Counted from the stretch's first letter, positions 1-29,730 are shown. The stretch is 64,000 nucleotides of DNA from an uncultured Bacteroidales bacterium (GCA_902792435.1 CADAZN010000014.1:40224-104223), one strand, 5' to 3'. Numbers and translations: made by a program. The notes: generated by a model from the sequence alone, not told the origin.

Positions 1-1298
1 ATGGGGTTACCATCCTCATCAACGGTGATATCGCGAATGACTCTTCTGTTGCCGTTGTCATCAATATAGCGGCCGTCAGGGGTGGTGATGTGCTCAATTG
101 CATGGCCGTTGCCTCCGCCCCAGCGGTTACATCCGCCCACATAGTGGGTGCACGATGAGCAATGGGTAAGCACGAGTGCAATCAACAACAGCAGTAATAG
201 TGCTAGCAAGAACCATAACAATGTGCGCAGGCAGCCCTCGGTAAACAAGGTCTTCCACCATGGCAATGCAATCTTCTCATAGGTGGCATAGAATGTGGTG
301 TCGCTATGGATGGGATTGCCCAATGGGGTGTTCCACCCTGTGAAGCGGTAACCCTCTATTGGAGTAACCATGGGCACCTGAGTGGGAGCTATAACCATTC
401 CGTCGGCAACTTGGGTGTCGGCAGGAGCACCGCTAAAGGTGCCAAAACCTCCGTGCTCAAAGTGCACGTTGTGCATCACGGGTGGCAATGGCTCGGGCTC
501 GGGTTCGGGCTCGGGTTCGGGCTCGGGTTCGGGCATGATGGGCAAAACAGGTGGCTCGGGAGTGGTTGGCATTTCTGGCGGTAGCACGATAGCTTCGCAC
601 ATGGCTGTGAATTCCAAATCCCTGTCAACTAAAGCATTGCTTGGGTCGTTAGGCGACCAGCCCACAAACTTGAATCCTTCGGCTGGAGTAACCGAGGGAA
701 CGTCGATGCCTGGGTGCAGGCGATAGCCGTGACGACGCATGAACGAGGCAGTGCCTTTCAATCTTGCGTTATCTGATTTGAATGTGATGCGGTGGAGCCT
801 TGTGTCGTCAACATCGGTAACGATAGCCGATACCATGTCGCCACCTGGCAACGCTTTCATTCCCCACACTCCAAGAATAACTTGCGACGGAGTAACAAAT
901 ACCATATCGTCGATATCCTCGCTGTCGATATATTTCAACATGCAGTTGAAATAGCGAGCTTCCTGTTCGCTGGCTTGACGCTTGAGGTTGTTGAAATAGG
1001 CTTTGGCCTCCGAAATCTGACGCTTAGCATCGTTGTACTGGGAGGTGCCTCTAACCGACGACAGGCGCACGGCTTGCGCCAAATCGGTGTCGACATGCCA
1101 TTCCAAGCCATGGATTGTGGACTCGAAATAGGGCATGGCAAAGAAGTTCTTGAATTTGGGATTTGTGACATGTTTTGCAATCAAACGCTCAAAATCACTT
1201 CTCCTATTATAGAAAGGTGTGCCTCCTACACTCTCTACTGTAAAGACACTCATCGGTGCCGTGGTGCACAGACGCGCTTTGTTTATTACTCTTGGCAT
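1..1298 (-). CDS. Membrane protein with two Listeria-Bacteroides-type (Flg_new-like) repeats and a (PE)7 linker; 3' end runs off the window
   Basis: Absent from the supplied ORF track because it has no in-window stop. Manual minus-strand translation from the ATG at 1298 stays open to position 1 (MPRVINKARLCTTAPMSVFTVESVGG...). It contains EGFKFVGWSP...LEFTAMCE and EGYRFTGWNT...TFYATYE units, the linker MPEPEPEPEPEPEPEPLPP and a TM helix LLWFLLALLLLLLIALVL. It starts 23 nt after the stop of 1322..4141. An alternative start is M16 at 1253. Confidence 0.65.
   Translation of the reverse strand, partial: MPRVINKARLCTTAPMSVFTVESVGGTPFYNRRSDFERLIAKHVTNPKFKNFFAMPYFESTIHGLEWHVDTDLAQAVRLSSVRGTSQYNDAKRQISEAKAYFNNLKRQASEQEARYFNCMLKYIDSEDIDDMVFVTPSQVILGVWGMKALPGGDMVSAIVTDVDDTRLHRITFKSDNARLKGTASFMRRHGYRLHPGIDVPSVTPAEGFKFVGWSPNDPSNALVDRDLEFTAMCEAIVLPPEMPTTPEPPVLPIMPEPEPEPEPEPEPEPLPPVMHNVHFEHGGFGTFSGAPADTQVADGMVIAPTQVPMVTPIEGYRFTGWNTPLGNPIHSDTTFYATYEKIALPWWKTLFTEGCLRTLLWFLLALLLLLLIALVLTHCSSCTHYVGGCNRWGGGNGHAIEHITTPDGRYIDDNGNRRVIRDITVDEDGNP
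490..534. repeat. Hexanucleotide (GGCTCG/GGTTCG) coding microsatellite, (PE)7 on the minus strand
   Basis: ggctcgggctcgggttcgggctcgggttcgggctcgggttcgggc. Confidence 0.85.
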
Positions 1299-1321
1299 AG
1301 TATTGCGTTTTAAATAGGTCT

Positions 1322-4141
1322 TTATTCGTTATTCAATTCCTCGATTATCTCGCCCATGCGAGCGTTGGCGGCTACATCATAGTCGGGCAGGTCGCACGAG
1401 AACACATAGCCCACCTTGAGCATTTCAATCCATCTCCACTTGTAACCATATCGGGGCAAGCGTGTGAGAGCTTGACGGTCTGATGCTTTGTAACCCTTCT
1501 CCTGAAGGCTGCGGTTGGCGCGGTCTAGTTCTTCGAGCAGATGAACGCCTGTCATGTCGTTTTTGGCCGTAATAATACTATCCTTGATGTTTAGTTTCAA
1601 CCGCTCGTTTTTCTCCATTATGCTGGCTCGCTGCTTTTCATCAAGGTAGTCATAGCCAAATGAGGTGACGAAGTGGTTGAATTCCATTGCGAGATAGTCG
1701 GCAATAATACCCACCGCATTGTCATTGTTGAACATGTTGAGATACTCATCTATCTTTTGGGTGATGCGATCATGCATGTTAAGATAGCGATATAGTCGTG
1801 ACAGGTTGGTGACCATGTCGGTAATTGACGGGATTGTTTCTTTGCACATGGCGGCAGCATGCTGGTTGAGGAACTGGTCAAGCCAGAAGTTCTCTACCTG
1901 ATAAGCCACCTGGTCGGCGCGTGAACTCATGATTTGGCTCACACTAAGCAATTTGCTTAGCTCAATACCTTGGCTCATCAGCAACTGGGCGCACTCTTCC
2001 TCGGTGTCAACACCCAGAGTGTCGCACAGTGTTCTGATGTTGTCGTCGCGAGATGCCTCGGTGCTTAGTCCAAACTGCATGAACAAGGCACTCTCGGCAT
2101 CGGAGCGGGAACTTGTAGCGTTGCTGCTGTTGAGCGCGGAGTGTATAATCTCAAACAGGTGAGGCTCGTCAATCATCATCACATCGAGCATCTTTCCAAA
2201 TGCCGATGGGTCACGGCTGTCGAGAATACCTATCTGTAGATTGGCTTGAGCGGCTTGACGCTTGGCTTTCTTTATTTCTTCGTCGACCGAACCGCTGTGA
2301 TAGTAGAGGCTCAAGGTTGTTTTTAGCTTGTTGAGTAGTTCTTTTACTTCGGAGGCAAACTTGTTGTCACGAGCCTCTTTTACTCGTGGGGCTAGCTCGT
2401 TGAGTGCCGCGATAATGGCCTTGGTGCCATCGTTGTTGAGTGTTGCCGCTCCATCCCATGCCTGTGAGGCGTCGCTGAAGTGTTTGGTGACAAAGTCATA
2501 ACTGATGAACGACTGCTTCAAGCATTCCATGAAATTAGGGAAGGCAGTGGGTATCACTTCTTCAATCTCGGGAGAATTAGTATTGGGATTATATCCCATG
2601 AACGACTTGGTCGAATACTTGAAATCCCTAAGCATGAAGATGTTGCGGAATGGCATGCCAGTGGTCCACTGATTAAACCAGTGAGAGTTGTCCTCGTCGG
2701 TGTTGGCTCTAAGCACTTCTTTCTCAAGAACGGTCTTGAAACGGTTCTCCCAGCGCTTTCGCATCTCATCGGGTTTGTCGGGCATATCATTGGTTTGATA
2801 TTCCAGGTCGAGATTGAAGAATGTGCTGATAATAAACAGCGGCGAAATGCGGGTGTAGCTCATGAAGTTGTCACGGTCGGACAATGTCTTGCCCACATTG
2901 CTCTTTACCCATTCAATGAGCACCGAGCCCATCTTGCTTTCGGCCGACTGCATGTTGTTGTGGCACAGCATCAGCGAAGAAATGCGCTTGGTGTCGCTGT
3001 AGCGGTTAAACAGGTAGGTTACCTTTCCTCGGCGAAGCACTACCGAGAGGTTCTTGCTGTTGGAGAGTTTGCTTGCCTCCATGTTCTCGGGTCTGCGCTC
3101 GCCAGGGAAGTCAAGAATGTCAAGGTTGGATAGGAATGCACGGCTCTCGCTCTCCATTGCCGGAAGCGACATATACAGCTCGGCAACAAGTGCACTAAGC
3201 ACGCTCTTCGACATCTCAACCTGCTGGCCTTGCGATGTGCCAACGATTGTCGTGGCACGGTATTGGGGTAACTCTACCTCCGAGGCATCATAAATCTCGT
3301 CGAGACGGGCCACATCGAGTAGGGTGCCATATTTCTTGAGCACTGCATCAAATGGGATGTAAACAATATTGCTGAACCTTATGGTGCGATAAGCCTTTAT
3401 CAAGGTGTCGAAAAGGCGACTGATGTCGGGATTCTCAAACCATAGGAGCTTCACGAGTGATATCAGCTGGTCGTCGGTGAGCATGTTGACATTAAGCACC
3501 AAGAAGTCAAAGAAGCCTGTCTCGGGGTCGATAATGTTGGCAACACGCTGCCTCATTGACGATGCATCTCGGCCCAGGTAGTCGCGAATGTCGCCTACGT
3601 CGTCCTGTGAAATCAAGGGCGATGGATTGGCTGTTGAAGGAACATCAATGCCCTCATAGAAAGAACGGATATAATCAATCTTCTTTATTTCGTTATTGTC
3701 ATAGTTGGTTTGGGTGTGATAAGCCTCGCACAACACTAGGATAATGTCGGCCACAGTGAGCAATCGGGCTTTGAGATAGCCCTCGGGAACGGTAGGGTCC
3801 GACGATGATGTAAAGCGTGTCACAACTCCTGTTGCCTCAACACGAGAATTGGGGTTACTTGGGTTTATCTCGTCAATAAAATTGTAGCTGCGGCGACCGT
3901 CGGTCACGGTGAATGGCTTGCCAGGGTCGCTCATCAGGGCGCTTACCAAATAGGATTTTCCCATCTGGCTCTCGCCAAAGGCGGCTGTAGAGCAGCGCTC
4001 GTCGTTAGCAAATTTTATTTTCTTGAAAGCACGTCTAATTTCAACAAGCTTGTTTACATAGCTCGCGCGCTCACTCTCAGGCACATTGATTCTCCATGAG
4101 AGGGCCTTCTCGACTACTTGTAGGTAATGGTTGAGGTTCAT
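1322..4141 (-). CDS. Large P-loop GTPase-like protein (SrfC-like putative virulence-factor family), 939 aa
   Basis: N-terminal Walker A FGESQMGKSYL (nt 3953-3976), a switch-like TGVVTRFT and a distal LDILDFPGE (DxxG). The C-terminal ~550 aa reads as helical. The start lies 1 nt after the stop of the upstream gene. The SrfC assignment is from memory of the family, not from a search. Confidence 0.8.
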   Translation of the reverse strand: MNLNHYLQVVEKALSWRINVPESERASYVNKLVEIRRAFKKIKFANDERCSTAAFGESQMGKSYLVSALMSDPGKPFTVTDGRRSYNFIDEINPSNPNSRVEATGVVTRFTSSSDPTVPEGYLKARLLTVADIILVLCEAYHTQTNYDNNEIKKIDYIRSFYEGIDVPSTANPSPLISQDDVGDIRDYLGRDASSMRQRVANIIDPETGFFDFLVLNVNMLTDDQLISLVKLLWFENPDISRLFDTLIKAYRTIRFSNIVYIPFDAVLKKYGTLLDVARLDEIYDASEVELPQYRATTIVGTSQGQQVEMSKSVLSALVAELYMSLPAMESESRAFLSNLDILDFPGERRPENMEASKLSNSKNLSVVLRRGKVTYLFNRYSDTKRISSLMLCHNNMQSAESKMGSVLIEWVKSNVGKTLSDRDNFMSYTRISPLFIISTFFNLDLEYQTNDMPDKPDEMRKRWENRFKTVLEKEVLRANTDEDNSHWFNQWTTGMPFRNIFMLRDFKYSTKSFMGYNPNTNSPEIEEVIPTAFPNFMECLKQSFISYDFVTKHFSDASQAWDGAATLNNDGTKAIIAALNELAPRVKEARDNKFASEVKELLNKLKTTLSLYYHSGSVDEEIKKAKRQAAQANLQIGILDSRDPSAFGKMLDVMMIDEPHLFEIIHSALNSSNATSSRSDAESALFMQFGLSTEASRDDNIRTLCDTLGVDTEEECAQLLMSQGIELSKLLSVSQIMSSRADQVAYQVENFWLDQFLNQHAAAMCKETIPSITDMVTNLSRLYRYLNMHDRITQKIDEYLNMFNNDNAVGIIADYLAMEFNHFVTSFGYDYLDEKQRASIMEKNERLKLNIKDSIITAKNDMTGVHLLEELDRANRSLQEKGYKASDRQALTRLPRYGYKWRWIEMLKVGYVFSCDLPDYDVAANARMGEIIEELNNE

Positions 4142-4142
4142 A

Positions 4143-7100
4143 TCAGAGGTCGGTATTTAAATCGGTAGTAGCAATATTTAAGTTAAATTCTCCAGAGTCA
4201 AGCCAGTAGCATTGAGGATCGTTGATGCTCTGAACTTGTAGCATGAAGTCTTTGGTGTTGAGGTCCTCACCATTGACGTCGGTAACCGAAGCAATAGTGA
4301 GTAGCTCTTTATTCTCTTCATAGTCTTCGCGTTCTATCTCAAACTTGAAAGGACCGCGATTAAGAAGGGTGTTGCGATACTCTCTCAAGCGACGTTGCTG
4401 TTGCTCAGGCGATAGAGAACCATCTGGATTAATTCGCTTGGTGATGTTCCTGTCGTCGACGTCCAGCACATAGAATGGCCTCACAGGGTAGATGCTGATG
4501 TCAAACTGCTTGGCTCCAATGTAGCAAGGGAATGAGTTCACCACAATATTGCCTGTTGAGGTGGTTGGAGTTATGAAGCAGCCTTCATTGTTGCGACCGC
4601 CAGCCTTCGAGAAGTTCTCGGTAGTGGGGCGCAGACGCTGGCTCAACTCTTGCAAGTCTAACGAGAATTCTTTCAATCCACCAGTCATTGAGGCTAGATA
4701 ACCTATCATTGCACCCACTGGCACCACGCTCTTGGTGTCAAACATGTAACCATTCTCGTCTTTGAAAGGATACCAGCGACCTATGCGATACTTGCCTAGC
4801 ACAACAAGGCGGTTGGGGCTTACAGGGAAATACCTGAGGAAACAGTCCTTGATAGGCTTGAGCATGGTGGGACGGCCCGAAAGTACTACTATATCGCAGT
4901 CGTGGGCATAGAGCAAAGTTGAGATTGACTCGATTAGGGAGTCGAGTGATAGCTCAACATTCTTCGAGAGCAATTGGTAATCATAGGTCCACTTGATATC
5001 TTGTAATTCAAAACCAAAGCAGTTCTTGAATGCTTGGCACACTATCTCGCTTGGCTTATTGTCTTTGAAAATCTCATCAAATCCCACTTCGCGATAGCGC
5101 TCGCCCTCGCTCAGTAAGCTCAAGAAATGATACATTACTGGAACGTTGACCTGCATATTGAAGTCGCGACGCATGATGCGGTCTTTAAATGTCATCATGT
5201 TGTTGTCTTGACCAAAGAAGTGGTACAGGCGTCGATAAGCCTCTTGGCGAGTCATACCGGCCTCCTGAGTCATATGCTTGTAGAAGATACCATCCTCACT
5301 CTCGATTATGACATTTTGAATAAGTTTTTGAAGCATGTCATCGCCTGCCACGTTGAAACTATCCCAATATAGTGGCACAGGTCTGAGCTGGGATGGGTTG
5401 CTCTCATTATATTCATAGCGGCAAACCATCACGTCGGTGGTACCGGCGCCAATGTCAACCGAGCCAATGTGTAGGCTGTCGCGACTTCGGCCTTCTATGT
5501 CACGTTTCTTGCCATAGAGCTTGAAGAACATGTCGCTGCAGTTGTTATAACGCTCGCAGAATTGTGCATACAAGTACACAAATTGTGAGCATGTGGCTTC
5601 GTCGAAATACCAGCTGCGATTGCCGTCTGGATCGGGCTTGGTGTCGGGAATGATGTCTATCTGTAATGAGATGCTGTTCTCATCAATTATGTTGTTATAG
5701 GCATTTACTATGCTGATGGCGTCTTTCAAGCTGTCATATAGTGCCTCGCGCTCCACTTGCGACATGGCGGTGGGGCAAGTCACGATAACACGCTCTAGGC
5801 GGCGGGGAGTGTTACGCAGGTCGTGACGCTCTCGCGACTGGAAGCTGTTGATTTGCACAAGTGCTTGTTGCACAATCTCGATAAAGGCAAAGGTCATGAG
5901 CGAGCTGCGGGAGTAGTGAGCTCCTATACCAAAACCGTCGGGGTTGAACGTGCCATCATCGTTGATGAAACATGTCAAGCCCTCGATGATGGGTGGTAAG
6001 GTGTAGTTCTCATTGCCAATGTTTACAAAGCGCCATTCGCTCTGGCTGGGCTTGTTGTCCCACAAGTAGCGCTTGGGACTGGAGTTTGTCGATAAGGTCT
6101 CCTGACCTAAATTCAGGGCGGTGGCCTCATGATTCAGGAAATTGGCCTCGCGTCCCAGTCTGATTATACTTGGCCACACAAATTGGTTGCTGCCCATTAT
6201 GTTTTGACCAAACGACACTTTGCGGAAGGCCAAGCGCATGTCAAAGGTGTCCTCCTCGCGGTTCAAATGGCCGTTGGGGAGCAGCAGGTGGGTGTAGTTT
6301 TGTAATTTAAGTGGGTCTACTTTGGTGAAATCCTGAGTGAATTGGTTGTTCTCAAACAGCAATGCCGAGGTGCGTGAGTTACCAATGTCGATAATCATTT
6401 CTACGTTGACAACGTTTACGTCACGGTCGCGCATGAGTTTTACCGACGAGAACAGGTCGATACTGCTCAAGTACTTGATGAACATTAAGTAGGTTGCCAA
6501 GAATTCATATTTGTGATGACCATCACGAAGCTCGAGCATGTCAAAGTTGGCAACATCGGGGAATACTATCTCCATCAAGCAGTCGCGTATCCAGTTTTTG
6601 TTCCAGGCACAGTAATCAATGAGCTGGCGCTCGTTGCCACACAGGCCAAAACGTTTCTCGGTTTCTCCCTCGCTCATAAACACGGGGCTCTCTTTATAGA
6701 TGTCGCTAGTGTTGTAGTAACCTGCTCGAGTGTCAAAAGCAAAGAGGAGGTCGGCGGTCAGCACTCCACCTTCGGTGCCGCGGGGAACAATCATAAGCTT
6801 GCTCCAGTTATACGGACCATTCTTGTAGTCGCCAGCCTCATCCATCTCAATGAATGGAATGGGAAGCCAACGATTAAAGTATTTTTCAAGATATTTGTTG
6901 TTGTTGGCCAACTTGGAATAAAAAATTCCCGAGGCATCTTCGTCTTCATCGTCGCCCACGTTGAATTGCGTGACCTCGGGATTGGCTAGCACAACTGCCT
7001 CGCTTGTGGTGAGATTGTTGTCGCTATCAAGATATCCTTTCTCGCGTAGCTGGGAGGTGAGCAACACGGTCTCGTTGTTCAGTGTGTAGGCAAACTCTAA

Positions 7101-7226
7101 TTTCCATTGAAACATCTCGTCGTCAAACGACTCATAGAACCTGCATTTATAGCCTGCGTTTAGATCTATATTAATGCGCTTGGTTAATAACTGAATTCCT
7201 GAGTTGGCTATCAAAGAATAATCCAT
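4143..7226 (-). CDS. Actin/HSP70-fold (ASKHA) ATPase-like protein (SrfB-like), 1027 aa
   Basis: Three ordered ASKHA nucleotide-binding signatures are present: MIIDIGNSRTSALLF (phosphate-1), GSVDIGAGTTDVMVC (phosphate-2) and CDIVVLSGRPTMLKP (adenosine). It is the first gene of the three-gene operon. Confidence 0.8.
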   Translation of the reverse strand: MDYSLIANSGIQLLTKRINIDLNAGYKCRFYESFDDEMFQWKLEFAYTLNNETVLLTSQLREKGYLDSDNNLTTSEAVVLANPEVTQFNVGDDEDEDASGIFYSKLANNNKYLEKYFNRWLPIPFIEMDEAGDYKNGPYNWSKLMIVPRGTEGGVLTADLLFAFDTRAGYYNTSDIYKESPVFMSEGETEKRFGLCGNERQLIDYCAWNKNWIRDCLMEIVFPDVANFDMLELRDGHHKYEFLATYLMFIKYLSSIDLFSSVKLMRDRDVNVVNVEMIIDIGNSRTSALLFENNQFTQDFTKVDPLKLQNYTHLLLPNGHLNREEDTFDMRLAFRKVSFGQNIMGSNQFVWPSIIRLGREANFLNHEATALNLGQETLSTNSSPKRYLWDNKPSQSEWRFVNIGNENYTLPPIIEGLTCFINDDGTFNPDGFGIGAHYSRSSLMTFAFIEIVQQALVQINSFQSRERHDLRNTPRRLERVIVTCPTAMSQVEREALYDSLKDAISIVNAYNNIIDENSISLQIDIIPDTKPDPDGNRSWYFDEATCSQFVYLYAQFCERYNNCSDMFFKLYGKKRDIEGRSRDSLHIGSVDIGAGTTDVMVCRYEYNESNPSQLRPVPLYWDSFNVAGDDMLQKLIQNVIIESEDGIFYKHMTQEAGMTRQEAYRRLYHFFGQDNNMMTFKDRIMRRDFNMQVNVPVMYHFLSLLSEGERYREVGFDEIFKDNKPSEIVCQAFKNCFGFELQDIKWTYDYQLLSKNVELSLDSLIESISTLLYAHDCDIVVLSGRPTMLKPIKDCFLRYFPVSPNRLVVLGKYRIGRWYPFKDENGYMFDTKSVVPVGAMIGYLASMTGGLKEFSLDLQELSQRLRPTTENFSKAGGRNNEGCFITPTTSTGNIVVNSFPCYIGAKQFDISIYPVRPFYVLDVDDRNITKRINPDGSLSPEQQQRRLREYRNTLLNRGPFKFEIEREDYEENKELLTIASVTDVNGEDLNTKDFMLQVQSINDPQCYWLDSGEFNLNIATTDLNTDL

Positions 7227-7266
7227 AATTATTTATTCCTATAAAATATAAGTGATGATATTTGGC

Positions 7267-7291
7267 AAACTCGCTGTTTTTCAGCGAGTTT
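7267..7291 (-). promoter_or_regulatory. Perfect 10-bp stem / 5-nt loop hairpin in the 5' leader of the SrfB-like operon
   Basis: aaactcgctg-ttttt-cagcgagttt, located 41 nt upstream of the start codon at 7226. Confidence 0.4.
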
Positions 7292-7327
7292 CTGGTTAAT
7301 AGTCTTGAAGTATCTTTTAGTTCTGCA

Positions 7328-7335
7328 CAAAATTA
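7328..7335 (-). promoter_or_regulatory. -7 box TAATTTTG (minus strand) for the SrfB-like operon
   Basis: The reverse complement of caaaatta matches TAnnTTTG. It is preceded on the minus strand by a T9 run (7337-7345) and implies a ~95-nt leader. Confidence 0.4.
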
Positions 7336-7541
7336 GAAAAAAAAATCCATAATTGTTACTTTTTCACGAAAAATATAATGAATAAATTATAATCGTAATA
7401 TTAATATTATATATATCAATAGCCGTGGATAAGTTTGCCTATGAAACCACTATCGTTCTTTTTGGGCGTTTTATTTGCACAATTCAAGATTCTTTTAGAA
7501 TTTTGCAGCCCAAAAAATATTTTCACTTCACTCACACTATC

Positions 7542-8858
7542 ATGGGACAGATAAGCGACACTAATATTAACGATAACAATGAAGTTGCCACTCAGGCCGA
7601 CCTTGCCGAGGTGCTGGAGGTGGCGGCTAAAGCAGGGCACATCCTCCTGGAGAATGGGGCCGAGATATCGCGCGTTGAGGACATTATGGGTCGCATCTCG
7701 TCGCATTTTGGAGTTGATTCGGGCAATTTCTTTGTCCTTTCTAACGGCATTTTCACCACTGGACGGGCCAATAAGATTACCAAGTCGGGAGCGCAGGCTT
7801 CTACCTACGCTAATGTGGAGTTTATTCCGCTCAGAGCAATCCAATTGTCGAAGGTTGTAGCTGTGAACCGCTTGAGCTATGATATTTCTAATGGAAGAAT
7901 TAATTTGGCCGAGGCTCGTGAGAGACTTGAGCGCATCAGCTCGGCAGCGCCAAAGCCAGCTTGGGAGCAAATTCTGGGATCGGGACTGGGTGCAGGAGGT
8001 TTTTGCGCCGTGTTCGGTGGCGGATGGATGGACTGCCTTGCTGCATTGGTGGTGGGTTTGTTACTTTATGCCTTCGTTCTAGGAGTGAGCGGTCGTTATC
8101 TTTCTAAGATTGTGGGTGGCACATGCAATGCTCTTGTTGCCACGTTGTTGTGCGTGTTGTGCTGGCGCATGGGCTTTGGCGACAGTCTTGCCAACATCAT
8201 CATCGGTGCTATCATGCCATTGATTCCTGGGGTGCCGTTTGTCAATGGTGTTCGTGATCTTGCCAACAGCGATTACCTGGCAGGCTTCACCCGTCTCACC
8301 GACGCCATGCTTGGCTTCTTCTGCATTGCAGTGGGTGTGTCGTTGGGATTTATCCTCGATGGCACGTTGCATGGTGGCGTGGTGAGCATCAGCATGACTG
8401 TGAGTCCGCAAACGGCTAGCGTGTTCCTTCAGGCGCTTGCCGCATTCATTGGCACGGCGGCGTTTGCATTGTTGTTCGGTATCGACCGCGAGCATTATGT
8501 GCCTGCAGGAGTGATTGGCGCTATTGGTTGGGCTTTATATTTGGTTCTAGTGCGCCAATGCGGAGCTACGCCTGTTACTGCCACCCTGGCTTCATCCACT
8601 CTCGTGTGTATAGTTTCTCGAATGGCTGCCATTCCGTTCCGCATTCCGGCGCAGGGATTTCTTCTTTGTGGAATCTTCCCGCTAGTGCCTGGAGCCGGAA
8701 TCTTCTGGTTTACCTATTATCTCACCGACTCGCAGTTCGACCTCTCAATGCAGAGCGGCTGGATGGCTAGCAAGGTTGCTATTGCCATTGTTTTGGGTAT
8801 AATTTTGGCAATGGAGTTACCGCAGCGATTATTCTCTCATAATCACCGCACGCACTAG
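7542..8858 (+). CDS. Threonine/serine exporter family protein (fused ThrE N- and C-terminal halves)
   Basis: LENGAEISRVEDIMGRI motif followed by about 10 hydrophobic segments. The track ORF starts at 7425, but the first plausible ATG (MGQISDTN...) is at 7542. Confidence 0.75.
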   Translation: MGQISDTNINDNNEVATQADLAEVLEVAAKAGHILLENGAEISRVEDIMGRISSHFGVDSGNFFVLSNGIFTTGRANKITKSGAQASTYANVEFIPLRAIQLSKVVAVNRLSYDISNGRINLAEARERLERISSAAPKPAWEQILGSGLGAGGFCAVFGGGWMDCLAALVVGLLLYAFVLGVSGRYLSKIVGGTCNALVATLLCVLCWRMGFGDSLANIIIGAIMPLIPGVPFVNGVRDLANSDYLAGFTRLTDAMLGFFCIAVGVSLGFILDGTLHGGVVSISMTVSPQTASVFLQALAAFIGTAAFALLFGIDREHYVPAGVIGAIGWALYLVLVRQCGATPVTATLASSTLVCIVSRMAAIPFRIPAQGFLLCGIFPLVPGAGIFWFTYYLTDSQFDLSMQSGWMASKVAIAIVLGIILAMELPQRLFSHNHRTH

Positions 8859-21931: not shown

Positions 21932-22057
21932 AGTCAACTTTTTTCAGGCAAAGACAGTTCATAGTTAAGAGTTTTTAGTTTATAATATGTTCGTGTGTGC
22001 GCAAAGGTAGGTAGGGGGAGCGGTGGGAACAAGATTGAAAAGTGACGCGGTGTTTTT

Positions 22058-22228
22058 ACACAAATTACCGTTAATTGACCATAAATTATCATTTAATTAT
22101 CAGTTTGCCTTGAGGCTGGAGGGGCGCTTCGCTTAAAATTGGGTCAAGTTCAAATCCCTTCGGGACCGCACACCGTGCTTCGCACGACTTATGCTTTTGA
22201 ATCTCCCCGAGCTGAAGGTTTAATGAAA
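22058..22228 (+). repeat. 171-bp intergenic repeat, copy A2 (followed by a ~45-nt degenerate restart at 22229-22272)
   Basis: Direct repeat of 21671-21841, offset by 387 bp. Confidence 0.9.
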
Positions 22229-22270
22229 AATTACCATTAATTGACCGCAAATTATCGTTTTATTGTCAGT

Positions 22271-22345
22271 TTTTTGGGGGCCGCGCTGCGCGCTAAAGAT
22301 TGCTGCCCTGCGGGCTAAAATTATAAAAGTTCTCAGTAATCGGTT
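22271..22345 (+). repeat. ~75-bp intergenic repeat, copy B2
   Basis: Same as B1 with a few substitutions. The mini-hairpin loop differs (ttc versus tgc) while the stem gccc/gggc is kept. Confidence 0.8.
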
Positions 22346-22607
22346 TCCAGTTATTTTTCACGACGATTAAGGACGATAATGATTTTTACTTTGGATTCTG
22401 GCACTTAGCCTTACGGCTTTAGAGTATTAATGACAATTGCTCGCGGTTTTATACATAAATTAGTATTAGTTCTCAGCTCTCAGTTTTTTGCTCGCAATTG
22501 TTTTGAGTTAAGCTAATTTAAGTTTGCCTGGCTAAGTTTTAGCCCGCAACCTTGCGTCCTTTGCAACATGAAAGCAAATATCCCTGATTTCTTTATAAGA
22601 AAGCGAA

Positions 22608-22623
22608 ACTCTATGAATAGAGT
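22608..22623 (+). promoter_or_regulatory. Candidate C-box operator: perfect inverted repeat ACTCTAT-GA-ATAGAGT
   Basis: A 7-bp perfect inverted repeat with a 2-bp spacer lies 25 nt upstream of the TAATTTTG -7 box (22648-22655) of the C-protein gene. Confidence 0.4.
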
Positions 22624-22647
22624 GTTGATTGGGGCTGGAATTAGGGA

Positions 22648-22655
22648 TAATTTTG
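22648..22655 (+). promoter_or_regulatory. Bacteroidota -7 box TAATTTTG (R-M operon promoter)
   Basis: Matches TAnnTTTG and lies 24 nt upstream of the ATG at 22679. Confidence 0.5.
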
Positions 22656-22678
22656 CATTCTAAAAATAGAGGGCTATC

Positions 22679-22891
22679 ATGGAAAATGAAATTCTAAAGA
22701 AATTTGGAGATAAGGTGCGGCATTACAGGAACTTACTTGGCTTGTCGCAAGAGAAGTTTGCCGAGAAAGCAAACGTTCACCGCACCTATATCGGCACAGT
22801 GGAACGTGGAGAAACCAACATAACTTTAGTCAATGTTTATAGATTGGCAGAGGCCCTAGAAGTGAGTGTATCAAAACTATTAGAGGAGTAA
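22679..22891 (+). CDS. XRE-family HTH protein, R-M controller (C-protein)-like, 70 aa
   Basis: LGLSQEKFAEKANVHRTYIGTVERGE helix-turn-helix. Its size and position, 5 nt upstream of the methyltransferase genes, are typical of C-proteins. Confidence 0.8.
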   Translation: MENEILKKFGDKVRHYRNLLGLSQEKFAEKANVHRTYIGTVERGETNITLVNVYRLAEALEVSVSKLLEE

Positions 22892-22896
22892 AATTA

Positions 22897-24105
22897 ATGA
22901 AGAAAGAGAAAAAATATAAAGAGCCACTCGAACTTGACAATCCTGTTGTTGAGGATGAACTTATTGCATATCAAAGAAGCTTGTTTGAACCACAAGTTGA
23001 ACACATAAAGAAAAATACATGTAAATCTTCTAGAAATAAATATACTGTTTTAGATTTATTTTGTGGTTGTGGAGGTTTGTCAAAAGGATTTATTGATGCT
23101 GGATTTGACGTGACCTTGGGCGTGGACTTTGATGATGCGGCATTAAAAACATTCTTATATAACCATCCAAATAGTACTGCCTTGAAGCTTGATTTGTTTA
23201 ATCTTGATAATGTTTCTAAAATTATAGATTTTTATAAATATAGAGGCTATACACCTGATGTTTTAGTTGGTGGTCCTCCTTGCCAAGGCTTTTCTTTAGC
23301 TGGACCTCGTCAAATTGACGACTCAAGAAATGTTCTTTATCGTGCTATGGTCAAAACGGCAACAGAGCTTAAACCAAAAGTTGTTTTACTAGAAAATGTT
23401 CCTGGAATAGTTCAATTACATGGTGGTCTTGTAAAAGATAAAATCATTTCTGATTTTGAAAGTATAGGTTATAACATAACTTATAGTATATTATATGCCC
23501 CAGATTTTGGAATTCCACAAACTAGGCGTCGAGCTTTTTTTATTGGACTATTAAATTCATCCTCGTCTTTCATTTATCCTGAACCTACCTTTTCCTCAGA
23601 GAATTATGTAACTTGTGAAGAGGCTATAGGTGACTTGCCTTCATTAGAAAACATTATTGGTGACGAAATTCAAGATTATCCTGTAGAACCATTATCCTCT
23701 TTTCAAAAACAAATGCGCGAGGGTTCAACAAAGATTTATAATAACCTAGGAACTATTCATGATAAGAAAACCATCAAATTTATATCTATGGTTCCTGAAG
23801 GTAAGAATTACAAATCTTTGCCAGAAAAATACAAAGGGATATATAAATATCATGAAGCTTTAACTAGATATCATAGTAAAAAACCTTCACCAACTATTAA
23901 TACAGGACATCGTTCACATTTTCATTACAAATGGAACAGAATTCCTACAGTTCGTGAGAGCGCTAGATTACAAACTTTCCCAGATACATTTATTTTCTTC
24001 GGAAATAAATCTCAACAATACAAGCAAGTCGGCAATGCAGTTCCTCCAATGTTAGGACAAGTATTAGCCAAAAAGATTAAGAAATGGCTAGAAAACGAAA
24101 AATAA
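22897..24105 (+). CDS. DNA (cytosine-5)-methyltransferase 1
   Basis: m5C MTase motifs I (DLFCGCGG), IV (GGPPCQGFS), VI (ENVPG), VIII (QTRRRAFF) and X (GNAVPP). Confidence 0.9.
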
Positions 24106-25331
24106 AACTACTTGATCTTTTTTCAGGATGTGGTGGTCTTACAGAAGGCTTCATGCAAACAAGAAAATATGAAGATATTACAGGCGTTGAATGGGATTAT
24201 TCAGCTCTATCAACTTTGAGAAATCGTCTCGCGTCTAAATGGGGGAAAAAGGATAGTCAAGAGTCTTTACTTCATTTTGATATTCAACGTGAAGAAGAAT
24301 TATTCAGAGGTTGGCAAGATGATCCAATATTTGGCTCAAGCCTAGGTATGGATTATTATGTTAATAAGCATAATGGTATTGATATAATAATAGGGGGGCC
24401 TCCTTGTCAAGCATATTCAATTGCAGGGAGAGTGCGTGATGAAGATGGTATGCAAAATGATTATCGCAACTACTTATTTGAGCATTATCTGTCAATTGTT
24501 AATAGGTATAAACCAGATGTTTTTGTTTTTGAAAACGTTCCTGGTCTGTTAAGTGCAGCGCCTCATGGTAAAAAAGTTACTGAATTAATTACAACAGCCT
24601 TTAAACGCATCGGTTATGAAATAATTGACAATTTGAAGCATGCTGTTGTCAATGCTGTAGATTATGGTGTTCCTCAAGTTAGAAAAAGAGTTATTATCGT
24701 AGGGATTAATGTCGACTCATTTAATCATAACCCTCAAGATATTCTTAAAGCTTTTTATAATGATATATTACCGAGCAAAAAAGATTCAAAAATTTATACG
24801 GTAAAAGATGCCATTGGTAATTTGCCGATAATAGAAGCTTATTGGGATTCAGCTCATCATGCTGAGCGCAAATCTCATTCTACACCCGAATGTTCTATCT
24901 CTTGGCACATTCCACGGTATAATAACTTGAGAGACATGGATACATTTAGGGTTCTTGCAGAAGATGTTATTTCTGGTAGAAATGAATATGATAGCAAAAG
25001 AATAGCGAAATTATATGAGGATAAAATAGGCTCAAAGTCCCCTATTCATAGATATCATGTTTTAAATCAAAACCTACCAAGCACAACAATTATAGCTCAC
25101 TTATATAAAGACGGCAATAGATTTATTCATTTTGATCCTAAACAAGCTCGAACTATAACACCTAGAGAGGCAGCTCTTCTACAGAGTTTTGATGTGGATT
25201 TTGAATTTATTGGTTCTAAAACTGATGTGTTCAAGATGATAGGCAATGCTGTTCCACCAAAGTTGGCAAAAGCTATAGCAGAGTCTATTTATGTTTTATT
25301 GAAAAAGTATAAATCAGATAAATATGCCTAA
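24084..25331 (+). CDS. DNA (cytosine-5)-methyltransferase 2
   Basis: Motifs [30 protein letters not shown] and GNAVPP. It overlaps the upstream MTase by 22 nt. Confidence 0.9.
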
Positions 25332-27288
25332 ATATACATTTACATCTGACCAAAGGATTTCATCTTTAGATGAAAGAATAAAATGGGTTGCTAATTACAT
25401 TAATCAAGGCAACTCTATTAGCAATTTAAGTGATAAATCAGAGAATAATAATGCTACCACCTTGAGATTTTATTACAATCTACATAGTGGCTCTGAAACT
25501 TGTAAGACTGCTGTTTCAAATCCAAAAGCGGTTATACGTAATTTTATTTTAAAATTCCAGTTCCCAAACACAAGGACTATTCAATCTTATAATGATTCTA
25601 TTACTGAGAATTGTTTTCTTGCACCATTTCGTGTTATTATATCTACACTTTACTTTATGGCGAAAGCAAATGAAGATGGTAATAGCTTTCTTACATTAAA
25701 TGAAATTCTATATTACATTTTTTGTGATAAACATATTTGTCAAAATCCCAGATTTAGTTATAAATACTTAATTTCTCGTATTTGTTTGGGTAGGCAATCT
25801 TATACTGACAACGATTTAGATAATAGGATTCAAAGCATAATTGAATGGAAACAATATACACGTCAATGTAGGGAATTATTGCAAGTTTTGAATTTTGCTT
25901 TTGATTCTATAAAATATAAAGAAGGGAAAGTTTCTTTTAATCATGTAGAATTTAGCAAAGACGATAGTTTTATACAAGAAGTAATCAATTATAATAAATA
26001 CTGGTACCCCTCAGATATTAATAATTTCTCATTAGCAGAAAAAGAATATATTAGCTATATGGATACAACTAACACACCTTACAATGTTATTGAGATAAAA
26101 AATTCAATAACTCCAATAAGTAATAATAGTGATAAACCCAGTGATTATCAAAAGTATCTATCTGCAATTCAAACTAAGCCATTTCTTTTACTTGCTGGCA
26201 TATCTGGAACAGGAAAAAGTCGCATAGTCCGTAGGTTAGCTCAAGCAAGTATTACCGAAGAATTGCAGAAGAAATATGACAAGAAGTCGGTAGAAAACGG
26301 CTTTGACCGCTGGAAGCTTCACAAGCCTGCCAACTTTGAGTTGATACAAGTGAAACCCAATTGGCATAATTCAATGGAAGTTGTTGGTTACAAGTCAAAT
26401 ATTAATGGAGCTCATTATGAGTTTACACCATTTATTGAGTTTGTCACACGAGCCTGGTTGCATCCTGCTGTGCCATTTTTCTTGTGCCTTGATGAGATGA
26501 ATCTTGCACCAGTTGAGCAGTATTTTGCTGAATTCTTGAGTGCGATAGAAAGCCGAACCAAAGAGAATGGTGAGTATATGACAGACCCAATTATCAAGCC
26601 TTTTGTTTCTTTTGGTGAGAAATTATGTGATGATATGCTTAATGCCATCTTACCAACTGTTTCTCCAAGTGAAACAGGAACTCCATTTGCTAAAAGAATA
26701 GAGTTCTTGAAGGGCCATTTCAAAGAAAAAGGTTTGACATTACCCGAGAACTTAATTGTCATGGGCACAGTAAATATGGATGAGACAACCTTCTCGTTCT
26801 CTCGCAAAGTACTTGACCGAGCAATGTCAATAGTGATGAACGATGTGAATTTGGAAGATTACTTTAGTTATCAATCGGATGTAATAACCTCTGAACTTTC
26901 AGATGACACTATATCAGCATTAATTAATCGTCCTATAAGTGGACTTGAAGTTATAGATGATGACTCACAAAAAGTCCGAGAGTTTTTTGAGGCAGTCAAT
27001 ATGATACTTGATGGCTCTCCATTTAAGTTGGGCTACCGTGCTATTAGTGAGGCTCTGCTCTATGTTCATGCAGCAAAAGTGTTTGGATGTGAGTCAATAA
27101 CAGATGCCCTTGACCAATTCACAATGATGAAGATAATAAGCAGGATTGAGGGGGATAAGCGCTCCATAAGTGATTTGCTTGATAAATTGCAGTCGGTTAT
27201 AACAACTGATTTTAAGCAATCAAACGAGAAATTGCAATCAATGGCAAGAACTCTTAATGCTAGTCAATTCGTTTCATATTGGACTTAA
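25324..27288 (+). CDS. McrB-like AAA+ NTPase restriction subunit (LlaJI.R1-like)
   Basis: Walker [13 protein letters not shown], a McrB-type Walker B region [21 protein letters not shown] and [20 protein letters not shown]. The ~280-aa N-terminal domain is unassigned. The start overlaps the MTase stop by 8 nt (ATGCCTAA). Confidence 0.8.
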
Positions 27289-29633
27289 ATCTTGCTACGA
27301 CTATGGCTTTTGACCGCAATATGCTACATTTTGAGGTTCGTAATTTGGACGTAAGTATCAAATTTACTTGTCCAAATTACGGCAAGCGTATTGCAGATTG
27401 TATAACTAACCTCCAAATAAACGAAGAAAGCGAAGACAAGGCTTTAGCTTTGTTTCGCTCAAGTGCTGAAGATGTTGAATTTTGTTTTGGAGAAACAGAC
27501 GAATGGCAACAAGGAGATATCAAGCATCAAGCTTATTTATTTGAAAACACAGACTACCCTGTTAGAATAATGCCGAGGCCTAACACAAGTGGTATTAAAC
27601 TATTGCGTCTAGTAATTGGAAAGAATTCCAGTGAGCAAGTGGCAACTGAGGATGAATTAATATTTGGCACAATCAATTTCCACAACCAAGTAGGCCACAC
27701 CGATATTAAGGTAGCTTATGAGCGAGAAGGGATAGAGAAGTTTCTTGTTTTTAGCACAGAGGTTTTAAGTTATAAAATGGATTACCGTAGCGATATGCGT
27801 CAGGTAATTGGTGATATTGAGAAGGAATTCTCAATGTTGAGTTACTCTTTGCTGAAAGAAACCTACCTTACGTTTAGTTCATCGAGTAAGGATAGCACCG
27901 ACCTTATTTGGTGGCAAATTTTCCGTGATTGTTACAATAAGATTGTTACTGCTGCCGACTATATTATTAACCGTCCCAAGAGAAGACTGAAGAGTGAGGT
28001 GCGTTATGAACGAGCGGAGTGGTTGCCATATATTCCTGCTGAACTTGAGAACGAGTATGCCGAATTCTCTAACCGTCCAGAATATCTCTACCGTATTGAA
28101 GAGATGTATCTTTCAAAAGATACTATTGAGAACCGTTTTTTGAAATACGCACTGTTGAATATTTCGAACCGTTTTAAGTTGGTGAAACGTAATGTTCTAG
28201 CGATACTCAATGCAGAGAACATCACTATGAGAGCGGAAATTGATGAAATGACCAATGAGTTAGATCGCCTAACCATTCATCCTTTTTTCCGCAATATAGG
28301 TACATTCAAAGGTTTCTCGCAGGATTCACTTGTGATGAAACAAGCCATGGGTTATAAAGACGTTTATGAGAATTGGATTTTACTTCAATGTGGTTATGAA
28401 CTCCAAGAGGGCATAATGCAGCTTGAAGTTAAGGAGATTTCAGACCTTTATGAGATTTGGTGTTTCATTAAGATAAAGAACATTGTTGAACATATACTTA
28501 AGAATCGCACTAAAATCATTACTAGCGGTAACCAAACACGAGGAGAATTCATTAAGAAACTTGTTCAAGGAAAATCATCGGATGTTAAGTTTATAGACAA
28601 AGATAATGAGATAGAACTCGCATCAGTAATGTATAATGCGACCACAGATGATGAGGCGATTCAAGACTTTGACCCAACAAAGCAAACAACAGATATAGAG
28701 AACACAACATCAAAGACTACGGAACAACGTCCAGATATAGTACTAAGATTGACCAAAGATGATAACGTTATTCAATACACCTATTTATTTGACGCAAAAT
28801 ATCGTTTAAATGACAAGCGCATTTTGGGTGCAGACGTGCCTCCTGTTGATGCGATAAACCAAATGCATCGTTATCGTGACGCAATTTATTACACTCAATC
28901 GGAAGATCAACAACTCAAGCGAGAAGTGATAGGTGGATATGTGCTTTATCCAGGAAATCTTGATAAAGAGAAGTTCCTTAATTCATACTATTACAATAGC
29001 ATAGATACAGTTAATATTGGCGCATTTCCTCTAAAGCCTGGCGGCAAATGGAATAATATTGAAGATGAATTGTTGCTTGACCCAAATAGCAGCGAGGATG
29101 TCTTGTATAAAGTAATAAAAAAATGGCTCACTGAAAACAGAAGTCATGACGAATTATTACGCAAATCGCTTCCACAAAAAGGTTTGAATTACTCGATAGA
29201 GGAAGTAAAAGAACCTAAGTATTTCATTGCAATTATTGACAAATCAGTTAATGATAATTTTGAAGAACTTGCTTCAGGTACAGCCACGGAATTTTATTCT
29301 GGCTATATGGGTACTAGAGACAATCTTGACCTTCAAGAAATAAGGTATTTTGCTCCAAAATTTGGTCATGAGGTTTTTGGATATTATGTTGTTAAATCAA
29401 TAAAACTCGTTTCTTTGGGAAATATTGGTAAACCTCATCGTGTGAAATTTGAGCTTGGTAAATATACTGAATTTAAGAATATTAGACCTATAGGAAGAGA
29501 TAAGGAAGCGGCAAGAGGTTTTACAATGACAAGAGATGAATTCTATTCATTCTTTATGACTGATGAACAGATAGAAGATATGAAAAAACCTGGTTTCTTT
29601 TTCTTCTTTTTTGATGAGAACAAGGAATCTTAG
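27279..29633 (+). CDS. McrC-like PD-(D/E)xK nuclease subunit (LlaJI.R2-like)
   Basis: PD-(D/E)xK core RPDIVLRL...YLFDAKYR, as in the McrC/DUF2357 family. It is translationally coupled to the NTPase gene. The start may instead be the ATG at 27303 (MAFDRN...). Confidence 0.75.
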   Translation: MDLNLATTMAFDRNMLHFEVRNLDVSIKFTCPNYGKRIADCITNLQINEESEDKALALFRSSAEDVEFCFGETDEWQQGDIKHQAYLFENTDYPVRIMPRPNTSGIKLLRLVIGKNSSEQVATEDELIFGTINFHNQVGHTDIKVAYEREGIEKFLVFSTEVLSYKMDYRSDMRQVIGDIEKEFSMLSYSLLKETYLTFSSSSKDSTDLIWWQIFRDCYNKIVTAADYIINRPKRRLKSEVRYERAEWLPYIPAELENEYAEFSNRPEYLYRIEEMYLSKDTIENRFLKYALLNISNRFKLVKRNVLAILNAENITMRAEIDEMTNELDRLTIHPFFRNIGTFKGFSQDSLVMKQAMGYKDVYENWILLQCGYELQEGIMQLEVKEISDLYEIWCFIKIKNIVEHILKNRTKIITSGNQTRGEFIKKLVQGKSSDVKFIDKDNEIELASVMYNATTDDEAIQDFDPTKQTTDIENTTSKTTEQRPDIVLRLTKDDNVIQYTYLFDAKYRLNDKRILGADVPPVDAINQMHRYRDAIYYTQSEDQQLKREVIGGYVLYPGNLDKEKFLNSYYYNSIDTVNIGAFPLKPGGKWNNIEDELLLDPNSSEDVLYKVIKKWLTENRSHDELLRKSLPQKGLNYSIEEVKEPKYFIAIIDKSVNDNFEELASGTATEFYSGYMGTRDNLDLQEIRYFAPKFGHEVFGYYVVKSIKLVSLGNIGKPHRVKFELGKYTEFKNIRPIGRDKEAARGFTMTRDEFYSFFMTDEQIEDMKKPGFFFFFFDENKES

Positions 29634-29692
29634 TGTCATTTGCGTGATTCGTGTAATTCGCTGTTTTTAATTGTATGACTTTATAAAGCGAC

Positions 29693-29730
29693 AGGGCCTG
29701 CCCGGGTGGGGCAGGTCCTGCTTTGTTGTT
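29693..29730. terminator. GC-rich hairpin and T-rich tail between the R-M operon and the convergent T9SS-cargo gene
   Basis: agggcctgccc-gggt-ggggcaggtcct, followed by gctttgttgtt. Confidence 0.5.

Follow-up and report, generated by a model that had tools for sequence, protein, structure and literature searches.

What does a tightly packed set of genes for an ATPase, a GTPase, and a membrane protein do in a member of the Bacteroidota? The question is raised by the minus strand at the start of a 64,000-nucleotide stretch of DNA (here called the window) from an uncultured Bacteroidales bacterium (GCA_902792435.1 CADAZN010000014.1:40224-104223). An annotation made from the sequence without database searches (the original prediction) described a three-gene module of an SrfB-like actin-fold ATPase, an SrfC-like P-loop GTPase, and a repeat-bearing membrane protein. 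In Salmonella, srfABC is regulated by SsrB. Since 2000, srfABC has carried the label "virulence factor" without a mechanism. Here, we report that three genes of the window begin a Bacteroidota-type Srf operon, in the order srfB-srfC-srfA', and that the third product is a predicted membrane-tethered subtilase. The identity and architecture of the operon and its proteins are assigned with high confidence. The families are known and database-named, and the operon is the Bacteroidota version of srfABC; a literature search found no characterization of Bacteroidota Srf genes.

Identity of the three window genes

All three genes lie on the minus strand. The first gene of the operon, srfB (gene 1; 4143..7226), encodes a 1027-amino-acid (aa) protein predicted to be a cytoplasmic, Hsp70-like (ASKHA) ATPase, and srfC (gene 2; 1322..4141) encodes a 939-aa Virul_Fac-family protein, putatively cytoplasmic and P-loop GTPase-like. 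The 5' half of a srfA-like gene follows (gene 3; 1..1298; aa 1-432 of 865) and runs off the window edge; its product is a predicted bitopic, membrane-tethered subtilase. Open reading frame (ORF) calling found the gene 3 frame open from 1298 through the window start. The spacers measure 1 nt between genes 1 and 2 (4142) and 23 nt between genes 2 and 3 (1299-1321), and ORF calls and translations reproduced all of the coordinates, spacers, and motifs given in the original prediction. Cotranscription of the three genes is plausible, since the same tight order recurs in about 70 species. The SrfB and SrfC assignments were likewise borne out, both proteins scoring above their Pfam cutoffs. Gene 1 matched SrfB (PF07520; E = 1.5e-176; 589.7 bits versus a cutoff of 27.1) over residues 3-1014, corresponding to profile positions 12-991/992, and gene 2 matched Virul_Fac/SrfC (PF10139; E = 1.2e-100; 338.5 bits versus a cutoff of 28.1) over residues 23-847, a family that was matched by all 27 aligned SrfC homologs.

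Gene 3 encodes a predicted membrane-tethered subtilase

We read the full gene 3 from the metagenome contig L001 (L001:12844-15441), which shares 98.9% DNA identity with the window over 7.4 kb; the exact SrfC protein of the window is present on many metagenome contigs, of which L001 is one. In L001 the gene 3 product is 865 aa long and carries, in the part that lies outside the window, a Peptidase_S8 domain (aa 587-838; E = 2.2e-48; 165.5 bits versus a cutoff of 21.8). Among gene 3 homologs, the catalytic His was present in 76/76 and the oxyanion Asn and the Ser each in 70/76, the exceptions being non-S8 variants, while the Asp was kept in all but one of the 53 sequences that reach that column. 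Judged from its sequence, gene 3 appears to encode an 865-aa membrane-tethered subtilase with an intact catalytic triad.

An AlphaFold 2 (AF2) model covering residues 1 to 590 divides the region upstream of the protease into several units, given here with their minus-strand coordinates. The protein begins with an α/β domain (849..1298; aa 1 to ~150), the SrfA-N domain discussed below, modeled with a predicted local distance difference test (pLDDT) of 70-92. It continues with a β-rich, Flg_new-like repeat (591..797; aa ~168-236; pLDDT ~84-92), a Pro-rich (PE)7 linker that is predicted to be disordered (483..587; aa ~238-272; pLDDT <50), and a second Flg_new-like β repeat (273..476; aa ~275-342; pLDDT 85-91). 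A single transmembrane (TM) helix follows (162..233; aa ~356-379; hydropathy peak of 3.11; AF2 helix at 356-379), predicted to be oriented N-in/C-out, and leads into a Cys/Gly-rich juxtamembrane segment at the start of the periplasmic part (3..161; aa 380-432), where the AF2 model is of low confidence. Only repeat 2 reached the Pfam Flg_new_2 cutoff (E = 2.5e-5; 24.6 bits versus 23.6; Flg_new, E = 2.2e-4). Repeat 1 is supported by its β-rich AF2 model and by matches to Flg_new and Flg_new_2 in 28/53 and 22/53 relatives, respectively, and the number of Flg_new-like repeats ranged from 0 to 4 across homologs. Because the protein has no N-terminal signal peptide and the TM helix is flanked by basic residues (K, K, and R) on its N-side, the N-domain and repeats are predicted to be cytoplasmic and the protease periplasmic. 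The earlier picture of a repeat-bearing membrane protein was therefore correct as to the (PE)7 linker, the TM helix, the Cys/Gly-rich part, and the two repeats; what falls away is a mere adaptor, given the S8 protease.

Ahead of the S8 domain, the AF2 model contains a compact unit at aa 469-546 (strand 469-479, helix 486-496, strands 503-508 and 513-517, helix 520-533, and strand 539-546; pLDDT 83-90). From its β-α-β-β-α-β topology and its position, we infer that this unit may be subtilase propeptide-like.

Two further observations concern the variability of gene 3. The PE linker (483-587) differs among ~99%-identical strains, reading PEPEPEPE... in the window and L002 and PEPEPIPE... in L001, L003, and L004. 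Separately, a 653-aa homolog (P0021) shares 54% identity with gene 3 across its N-half, as far as the beginning of the propeptide-like unit (motif SDRLN), and then continues into a polytopic, Peptidase_A24-like C-half; it reflects either true swapping of modules or a chimeric assembly.

The N-domain of gene 3 is homologous to SrfA-N

SrfA has its SrfA-N domain in the cytoplasm and, beyond a TM helix, a lipocalin-like domain in the periplasm (bioRxiv 10.64898/2026.09.18.752743). We aligned 18 gene 3-type N-domains (alignment A2) and, separately, the N-domains of 10 gammaproteobacterial SrfA proteins together with one SrfA-like protein from Mesorhizobium (alignment A3), the SrfA set having been gathered from a Klebsiella plasmid SrfA. 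Comparison with hhalign matched the gene 3 N-domain to SrfA-N with a probability of 97.0% (E = 1.1e-10; 132/145 columns), covering both domains end to end. Residues A54, P56, W67, W145, and G146 were invariant in the A2 N-domains. A jackhmmer search seeded with the N-domain of the window recovered 118 of 120 SrfA proteins, and a hidden Markov model (HMM) built from gene 3 N-domains matched the SrfA-type proteins of Mesorhizobium and Klebsiella. Against 1.84 billion representatives, the A2 profile found 698 proteins at E <= 1e-3; in all of the best 150 of these 698, the SrfA-N-type domain was N-terminal. Exactly one TM helix lay downstream of the N-domain in each of the 53 full-length SrfA-N proteins examined that lack the S8 motif (53/53).

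Beyond the N-domain, gene 3 parts from SrfA. An NCBIfam scan of gene 3 with E up to 1 gave no match to the SrfA family (model NF040486, accession as cited in bioRxiv 10.64898/2026.09.18.752743), and in place of the lipocalin-like SrfA-C, with its FLNGxW motif and four Cys, the protein has the propeptide-like domain and Peptidase_S8. At the sequence level, gene 3 appears to be a domain-level SrfA homolog that falls outside the SrfA family proper. The original prediction had noted no srfA-like gene upstream and an unrecognized N-terminal domain of ~170 aa in gene 3. A missing srfA is contradicted by the hhalign and jackhmmer results; the N-terminal domain is identified as SrfA-N, and its size comes nearer ~150 aa. 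Given this homology, the locus reads as a permuted srfB-srfC-srfA'.

With regard to the protein kinase-like fold that has been proposed for SrfA-N (bioRxiv 10.64898/2026.09.18.752743), the 1-590 model gave weak kinase matches (MARK4, E = 0.08, probability of 0.47; GCN2; Nek2). On the Klebsiella pneumoniae plasmid NZ_CP071386.1, a "tellurite resistance domain protein" encoded directly upstream of srfA (L090:6133-7242) gave a weak SrfA-N-like match in an iterated search (E = 2.3e-4) and may be a second SrfA-N paralog. We also noted a Bacteroidales clade with a signal-anchored S8 and no SrfA-N detectable in any frame (L053, L058, L062, L063, L068, L070, L072, L073, L076-L078, L080-L085, and L088); in this clade both SrfB (~1063-1083 aa) and SrfC (~957-985 aa) are longer.

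SrfB resembles Hsp70, and SrfC is a P-loop GTPase-like protein

The translation of gene 1 contains the motifs DIGNSRT, DIGAGTTD, and VVLSGRP, and the SrfB nucleotide-binding positions D280/G282, D591/G593/G595, and G784/R785/P786 were invariant among 67 homologs. PDB searches by sequence and profile found no relatives of SrfB. An AF2 model of the protein (pLDDT 85.8; predicted template modeling score of 0.88) was compared with the PDB using Foldseek, and the top matches were full-length DnaK, BiP, Hsp110, and Ssb (E ~3e-15; probability 1.0); PDB entries consisting of the nucleotide-binding domain only gave a TMt of 0.63-0.67. Since its top structural neighbors in the PDB include DnaK, BiP, and Hsp110, SrfB is predicted to adopt an ASKHA fold for which "Hsp70-like" is more precise than "actin-fold." Of the "actin-fold ATPase" proposed earlier, the ASKHA fold is thus upheld by the motifs and the model, with Hsp70-like as the better term.

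The translation of gene 2 contains GESQMGKS, TGVVTRF, and DFPGE. Across 27 SrfC homologs from three classes, including those of Klebsiella and Mesorhizobium, the G1 residues G56/G61/K62/S63, T104, and the G3 residues D344/P346/G347 were invariant, as expected of the P-loop G1 and G3 motifs that had been proposed for this gene. The SrfC profile matched the Klebsiella and Mesorhizobium SrfC proteins with E values of 1e-105 to 1e-115. A clear NKxD guanine specificity motif was not found in SrfC, matches to MMR_HSR1 and RsgA were weak (each in 4/27 homologs), and sequence and profile searches of the PDB found neither a solved relative nor a GTPase relative. We describe SrfC as a putative P-loop GTPase-like protein. 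Hydropathy scans detected no TM segment in either SrfB or SrfC, and neither protein has a signal peptide.

An ASKHA protein encoded beside a large GTPase whose C-terminal region is long (dynamin/septin-style in the original prediction) could instead be read as a cytoskeletal or membrane-remodeling pair, in which SrfB forms actin-like filaments, a dynamin-like SrfC shapes membrane or makes vesicles, and gene 3 provides the anchor. Weak Pfam matches to FtsA and MreB at the phosphate-1 motif of gene 1 point the same way. However, the structural neighbors of SrfB are Hsp70 chaperones and not actin, MreB, ParM, or FtsA, and no Pfam signal for Dynamin_N, GBP, or septin was obtained at E up to 1 in any of the 27 SrfC homologs, for which, as noted, no solved relative was found. 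We consider such a remodeling pair very unlikely.

The operon extends beyond the window

To place the three genes in their neighborhood, GTDB species representatives were scanned with SrfB patterns, which yielded at least 590 confirmed loci, the best 80 of them all of the Bacteroidota type; SrfB clusters at E <= 1e-5 numbered 2119. By these counts, the system is common in Bacteroidota. Synteny was then counted by ORF calling and clustering over 84 related Bacteroidota loci. SrfB occupied position 1 in 84/84 loci, SrfC position 2 in 80/84, and the gene 3 type (g3, SrfA'), mostly S8 bearing, position 3 in 74/84. Position 4 was held by g4, a ~330-aa membrane protein with four TM helices, in 65/84 loci; position 5 by g5 (~450-650 aa), which joins a TPR-like N-half to a TRAFAC GTPase, in 69/84; and position 6 by bitopic g6 variants in ~52/84. 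Further operon products past g5 span the membrane once or are coiled-coil proteins. The same order was seen in loci found through distant g3 homologs, with housekeeping genes bounding the ends after about nine genes. By this census, what had been predicted as a three-gene module comprises 6 to 9 conserved genes in one operon and runs on past the window edge.

In g5, the G1, G3, and TKxD G4 motifs were invariant. In DO-GTPases a Glu follows Walker B, and the corresponding motif in g5 reads DLAGE or SGE. Pfam DO-GTPase1/2 (PF19975/PF19993) matched 11/24 g5 homologs (best E = 3.2e-8 for DO-GTPase1 and 1.5e-7 for DO-GTPase2), and the g5 of L001, the strain nearest to the window, gave an E value of 0.18 against DO-GTPase1. 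We regard g5 as probably related to the DO-GTPases, that is, DO-GTPase-like. A family scan of the L001 operon products recognized no GAP1 partner. PDB searches by sequence and profile found no relatives of g5, and the matches returned in the SrfB, SrfC, and g5 searches were P-loop level or spurious (nanobodies and designed repeats). Two candidate assignments were rejected: SrfC and g5 as paralogous "double GTPases" (hhalign probability of 1.6%) and g4 as a RexB-like Abi channel (PF15968), which matched 1/36 homologs with an E value of 8.9e-4, under the gathering score, and is attributed to chance.

The abundance of membrane proteins in the operon bears on another explanation, an export or assembly machine with a built-in subtilase, in which SrfB, SrfC, and g5 would power the insertion, export, or maturation of the g6-g9 products and the S8 protease would process them. 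Mycosin, the subtilase of type VII secretion, offers the analogy, and Hsp70-type ATPases are known translocation motors. At least five operon products are membrane anchored, several of them coiled coil or of low complexity, and the tail genes covary with the core by clade (clusters 5, 6, 8, and 15). These same tail genes are, however, poorly conserved compared with the core, proteobacterial systems lack them altogether, and family scans recognized no channel-forming or secretin-like component. An export machine therefore seems distinctly unlikely.

The distribution and composition of the operon likewise bear on the idea that SrfABC is a secreted tripartite cytotoxin or virulence factor, delivered onto eukaryotic cells by, for example, outer-membrane vesicles, as proposed for Xenorhabdus stockiae. 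Escherichia coli lysates containing Xenorhabdus SrfABC are cytotoxic and insecticidal, and lysate cytotoxicity makes up the sole functional data on srfABC (PMC6950479); export in outer-membrane vesicles has been argued (bioRxiv 10.64898/2026.09.18.752743), and the database names read "virulence factor." Yet the organisms that carry the operon are commensals of the rumen and gut, or free-living Bacteroidota such as Niastella, Runella, Fluviicola, and Algoriphagus. SrfB and SrfC have no signal peptide or TM segment and need cytosolic nucleotides, SrfA' is an integral membrane protein, and the system has an extra cytoplasmic GTPase and membrane components. In addition, the Salmonella Srf proteins are not substrates of the type III secretion system (bioRxiv 10.64898/2026.09.18.752743). 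We judge a secreted toxin to be highly improbable for this operon.

Two observations were made in passing. The ninth gene of L001 (L001:22323-22820, partial) encodes a further small protein, bitopic and rich in Cys and Gly next to its membrane segment, that clusters by BLAST with the gene 3 family (cluster 1), which suggests paralogous periplasmic modules inside the operon. Bacteroidota-type modules also occurred in metagenome-assembled genomes labeled Clostridiales, Dialister, or Staphylococcus (L017, L019, L035, L041, and L079), most likely through binning contamination and not true cross-phylum spread.

Periplasmic modules and genomic settings vary

S8 is the rule in Bacteroidota g3 proteins. 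Two loci (L046 and L048) encode an SrfA' without S8 and have two trypsin-like peptidase genes elsewhere in the operon, and single cases carry papain C1, vWA, OmpA, or IgGFc-binding domains. In Flavobacteriales, the SrfA-N-TM and TM-S8 parts are two separate genes. Because three protease chemistries recur at the same position, we take the periplasmic protease to be the probable working end of the system. On Mesorhizobium japonicum pMLa, a gene annotated as a "serine protease" (L091:5689-7344) encodes SrfA-N, a TM helix, and Trypsin_2 and looks like an independent protease recruitment. The genes for another SrfA-like protein, SrfB, and SrfC come next, with several PAN-domain proteins encoded nearby.

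Diversity was very high in the upstream flanks, whose 139 ORFs gave 173 Pfam families; integrases occurred at 5/47 loci and NusG-like genes at 4. In Klebsiella, srfABC together with vWA, ABC transporter, and SUMF1 genes was found on 114 plasmid records. The module is self-contained and moves between contexts. Composition gave no evidence of recent transfer, the guanine-plus-cytosine (GC) content of the module (0.488) matching the background (0.479).

Three settings stood out among the flanks. On the Runella sp. SP2 plasmid pSP2_1 (L089; NZ_CP031031.1 47391-74570), the module is colinear (srfB-srfC-S8-g4-g5-g6) and comes immediately after genes for a type II restriction-modification (RM) subunit, an AAA ATPase, a restriction endonuclease, and the BREX components pglZ and brxL. 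In L033 (L033:7311-8039) and in 3-6 other related loci, the gene just before srfB is NusG-like (KOW-containing, UpxY-type), which suggests operon-specific antitermination of a long operon; the window locus has no such gene. At 5-6 loci (L026:2473-3672, L025, L031, and others), a tyrosine recombinase gene (Phage_int_SAM_5/Arm-DNA-bind_5) is immediately upstream of srfB, a hint that some Srf copies ride on integrative elements.

In the window itself, the operon is preceded by a leader and divergent promoter region (7227..7424, minus strand) that is shared with a plus-strand ThrE-family gene (7425-8858). The leader contains a perfect 10-bp hairpin with a 5-nt loop (7267-7291; fold z = -3.5; 0/200 shuffles as good) and a T9 tract (7337-7345, minus strand) followed by TAATTTTG at 7328-7335, which we take to be a match to the Bacteroidota -7 consensus. 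The hairpin and T9 were constant across L001-L004, four strain-level, ~99%-identical assemblies, with no variation in T9 length, and both the hairpin and the T-run were absent from the nearest species-level relatives (L009-L011). No Rfam family matched the leader, and no terminator-like T-tail follows the hairpin. The hairpin and T9 tract that had been predicted are therefore present; control by attenuation or slippage, which had been proposed from them, is not supported, given their absence in L009-L011 and the constant T9 in the four assemblies.

Elsewhere in the window, positions 22000-30000 form a low-GC island (0.32-0.39 versus ~0.48 elsewhere) with four packed, codirectional plus-strand ORFs (22897-24105, 24084-25331, 25324-27288, and 27279-29633). 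PDB sequence searches with the two largest of these ORFs found nothing. The island is possibly a horizontally acquired cassette.

A model for the operon and its weak points

The best overall explanation, which we favor tentatively, is that the operon encodes a membrane-tethered periplasmic protease built on SrfA-N and controlled by nucleoside triphosphatases (NTPases). SrfB and SrfC would come together on SrfA-N, on the inner side of the cytoplasmic membrane. SrfA, SrfB, and SrfC coimmunoprecipitate in Xenorhabdus (PMC6950479), and an AlphaFold 3 model has SrfB, followed by SrfC, docked on SrfA (bioRxiv 10.64898/2026.09.18.752743); by analogy with these results, SrfB and SrfC probably dock on the SrfA-N domain of gene 3. 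Cycles of ATP and GTP, with g5 as an additional switch, would then act across the single TM helix to control the periplasmic protease, by clustering, activation, or release of a zymogen tethered on its propeptide side. Such inside-out, NTPase-gated control of an envelope protease is possible, though doubtful. As to the purpose of the system, the constant NTPase core, the swappable periplasmic modules, the scattered locations, and the occasional integrase, plasmid, or BREX neighbors favor a conflict or envelope role over a housekeeping one, and we entertain a conflict role as a reasonable possibility, short of an expectation.

Several observations weigh against this model. The strain of the window is itself seen only to position 1, and the downstream part is taken from L001. 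Seventeen Bacteroidales loci encode SrfB, SrfC, and a signal-anchored S8 protein with no SrfA-N detectable by six-frame HMM and jackhmmer searches; because of these loci, an SrfA-N platform does not seem to be universally required. Foldseek searches with the 1-590 model gave no significant match for the propeptide-like unit, returning generic ferredoxin and RRM folds at E >= 0.06. With respect to a role in conflict, the three window proteins had no meaningful match in PADLOC-DB v2 (best E = 0.003-0.03, over short stretches), and PADLOC found a few isolated single-member matches and no clear defense island enrichment among the 139 upstream-flank ORFs. Most neighbors of the module are housekeeping genes. 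Given the few PADLOC matches, the housekeeping neighbors, and a GC content at background, the defense island signal is weak. As in the original prediction, no characterized pathway matches the module; no PADLOC model or solved structure matches it either.

A rival explanation is an outside-in arrangement, in which a variable periplasmic domain detects an insult to the envelope (phage adsorption or injection, or a toxin) and signals through the TM helix to SrfA-N, whereupon SrfB, SrfC, and g5 execute a response such as abortive infection or membrane repair. Sensor diversification typically pairs an NTPase core that stays constant with extracytoplasmic modules that vary (here protease, lipocalin-like, vWA, and OmpA-like), and the C-domain of enterobacterial SrfA is a lipocalin/avidin-like ligand binder and not an enzyme (bioRxiv 10.64898/2026.09.18.752743). 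The probable relatives of g5, the DO-GTPases, are switches near the membrane in predicted conflict systems (PMC7159879), and the Runella copy adjoins BREX and RM genes. Nevertheless, three protease chemistries at one position look more like effectors than sensors, the module lacks PADLOC matches, and no cytoplasmic effector (nuclease, TIR, or pore-forming toxin) was recognizable, the RexB-like match of g4 in 1/36 homologs being due to chance. A sensor of this kind appears rather unlikely.

Returning to NTPase control of a tethered protease, a bolder version would make the Srf operon a new class of trans-envelope machine, in which an Hsp70-like ATPase and two unrelated GTPases seated on SrfA-N mechanically gate or release a protease zymogen, with S8, S1, and C1 enzymes as polymorphic effectors in envelope immunity or antagonism. 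We regard this version as unlikely; if true, it would also explain enterobacterial srfABC. The srfABC riddle is in any case turned into testable hypotheses concerning protease substrates, NTPase dependence, and SrfA-N docking, and genetic work can turn to hosts already in culture: Bacteroides sp. OF04-15BH, B. muris, Xylanibacter muris, Niastella yeongjuensis DSM 17621, and Runella sp. SP2.

Comparison with known systems

Control of periplasmic hydrolases by cytoplasmic NTPases is exemplified by FtsEX-EnvC/PcsB and by MacB-type mechanotransmission, and the mycosin MycP is a membrane-anchored subtilase of a secretion machine. FtsEX-EnvC/PcsB and MacB serve here as a working analogy only: no sequence or fold relationship is known, the Srf operon has an Hsp70-like ATPase and GTPases and not ATP-binding cassette (ABC) ATPases, and its coupling would run through a single TM helix.

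The GTPase-centric (DO-GTPase) conflict systems offer a second comparison; HSP70 is part of some of them, and many are predicted to act at the membrane (PMC7159879, Kaur, Burroughs, Iyer and Aravind 2020). The shared theme is one or more TRAFAC GTPase switches combined with an Hsp70-superfamily ATPase, membrane parts, and variable effectors or peptidases. In contrast to these systems, SrfB is a distinct family of ~1000 aa and not a canonical DnaK with GrpE, and Srf proteins are not mentioned in PMC7159879.

Closer in architecture is the Mesorhizobium japonicum pMLa protein, which likewise combines SrfA-N, one TM helix, and a periplasmic serine protease beside srfB/srfC. It differs in having an S1/Trypsin_2 and not an S8 protease, in being encoded upstream of srfB, in the presence of a second SrfA-like protein, and in belonging to another phylum.

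The distribution of srf genes has been described for Proteobacteria only (PMC6950479), and the account of SrfA in bioRxiv 10.64898/2026.09.18.752743 makes no mention of a protease fusion or of Bacteroidota homologs. With enterobacterial srfABC, the operon shares the SrfB and SrfC families, the adjacency of srfB and srfC, a homologous SrfA-N, and a bitopic, N-in SrfA-type protein. The gene order is B-C-A' in Bacteroidota (the window and ~74 loci), whereas it is A-B-C in enterobacterial srfABC (Klebsiella plasmids). The spacer before the TM helix consists of structured Flg_new repeats in Bacteroidota and of a disordered linker in enterobacteria, and the C-terminal domain is propeptide-like plus Peptidase_S8 in the former and a periplasmic lipocalin-like SrfA-C in the latter. 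The conserved g4, g5, and g6 are additions of the Bacteroidota operon, with no homologs among the genes after srfC in Klebsiella and Mesorhizobium; conversely, the proteobacterial accessory genes (vWA, Lol-like ABC transporter, and SUMF1) are absent from the Bacteroidota operon. In Bacteroidota, then, the SrfA component carries a recognizable enzyme, a predicted periplasmic serine protease, together with a conserved second GTPase and membrane partners. The Bacteroidota operon argues against the label "secreted effector" and links Srf thematically to NTPase-centered conflict systems.

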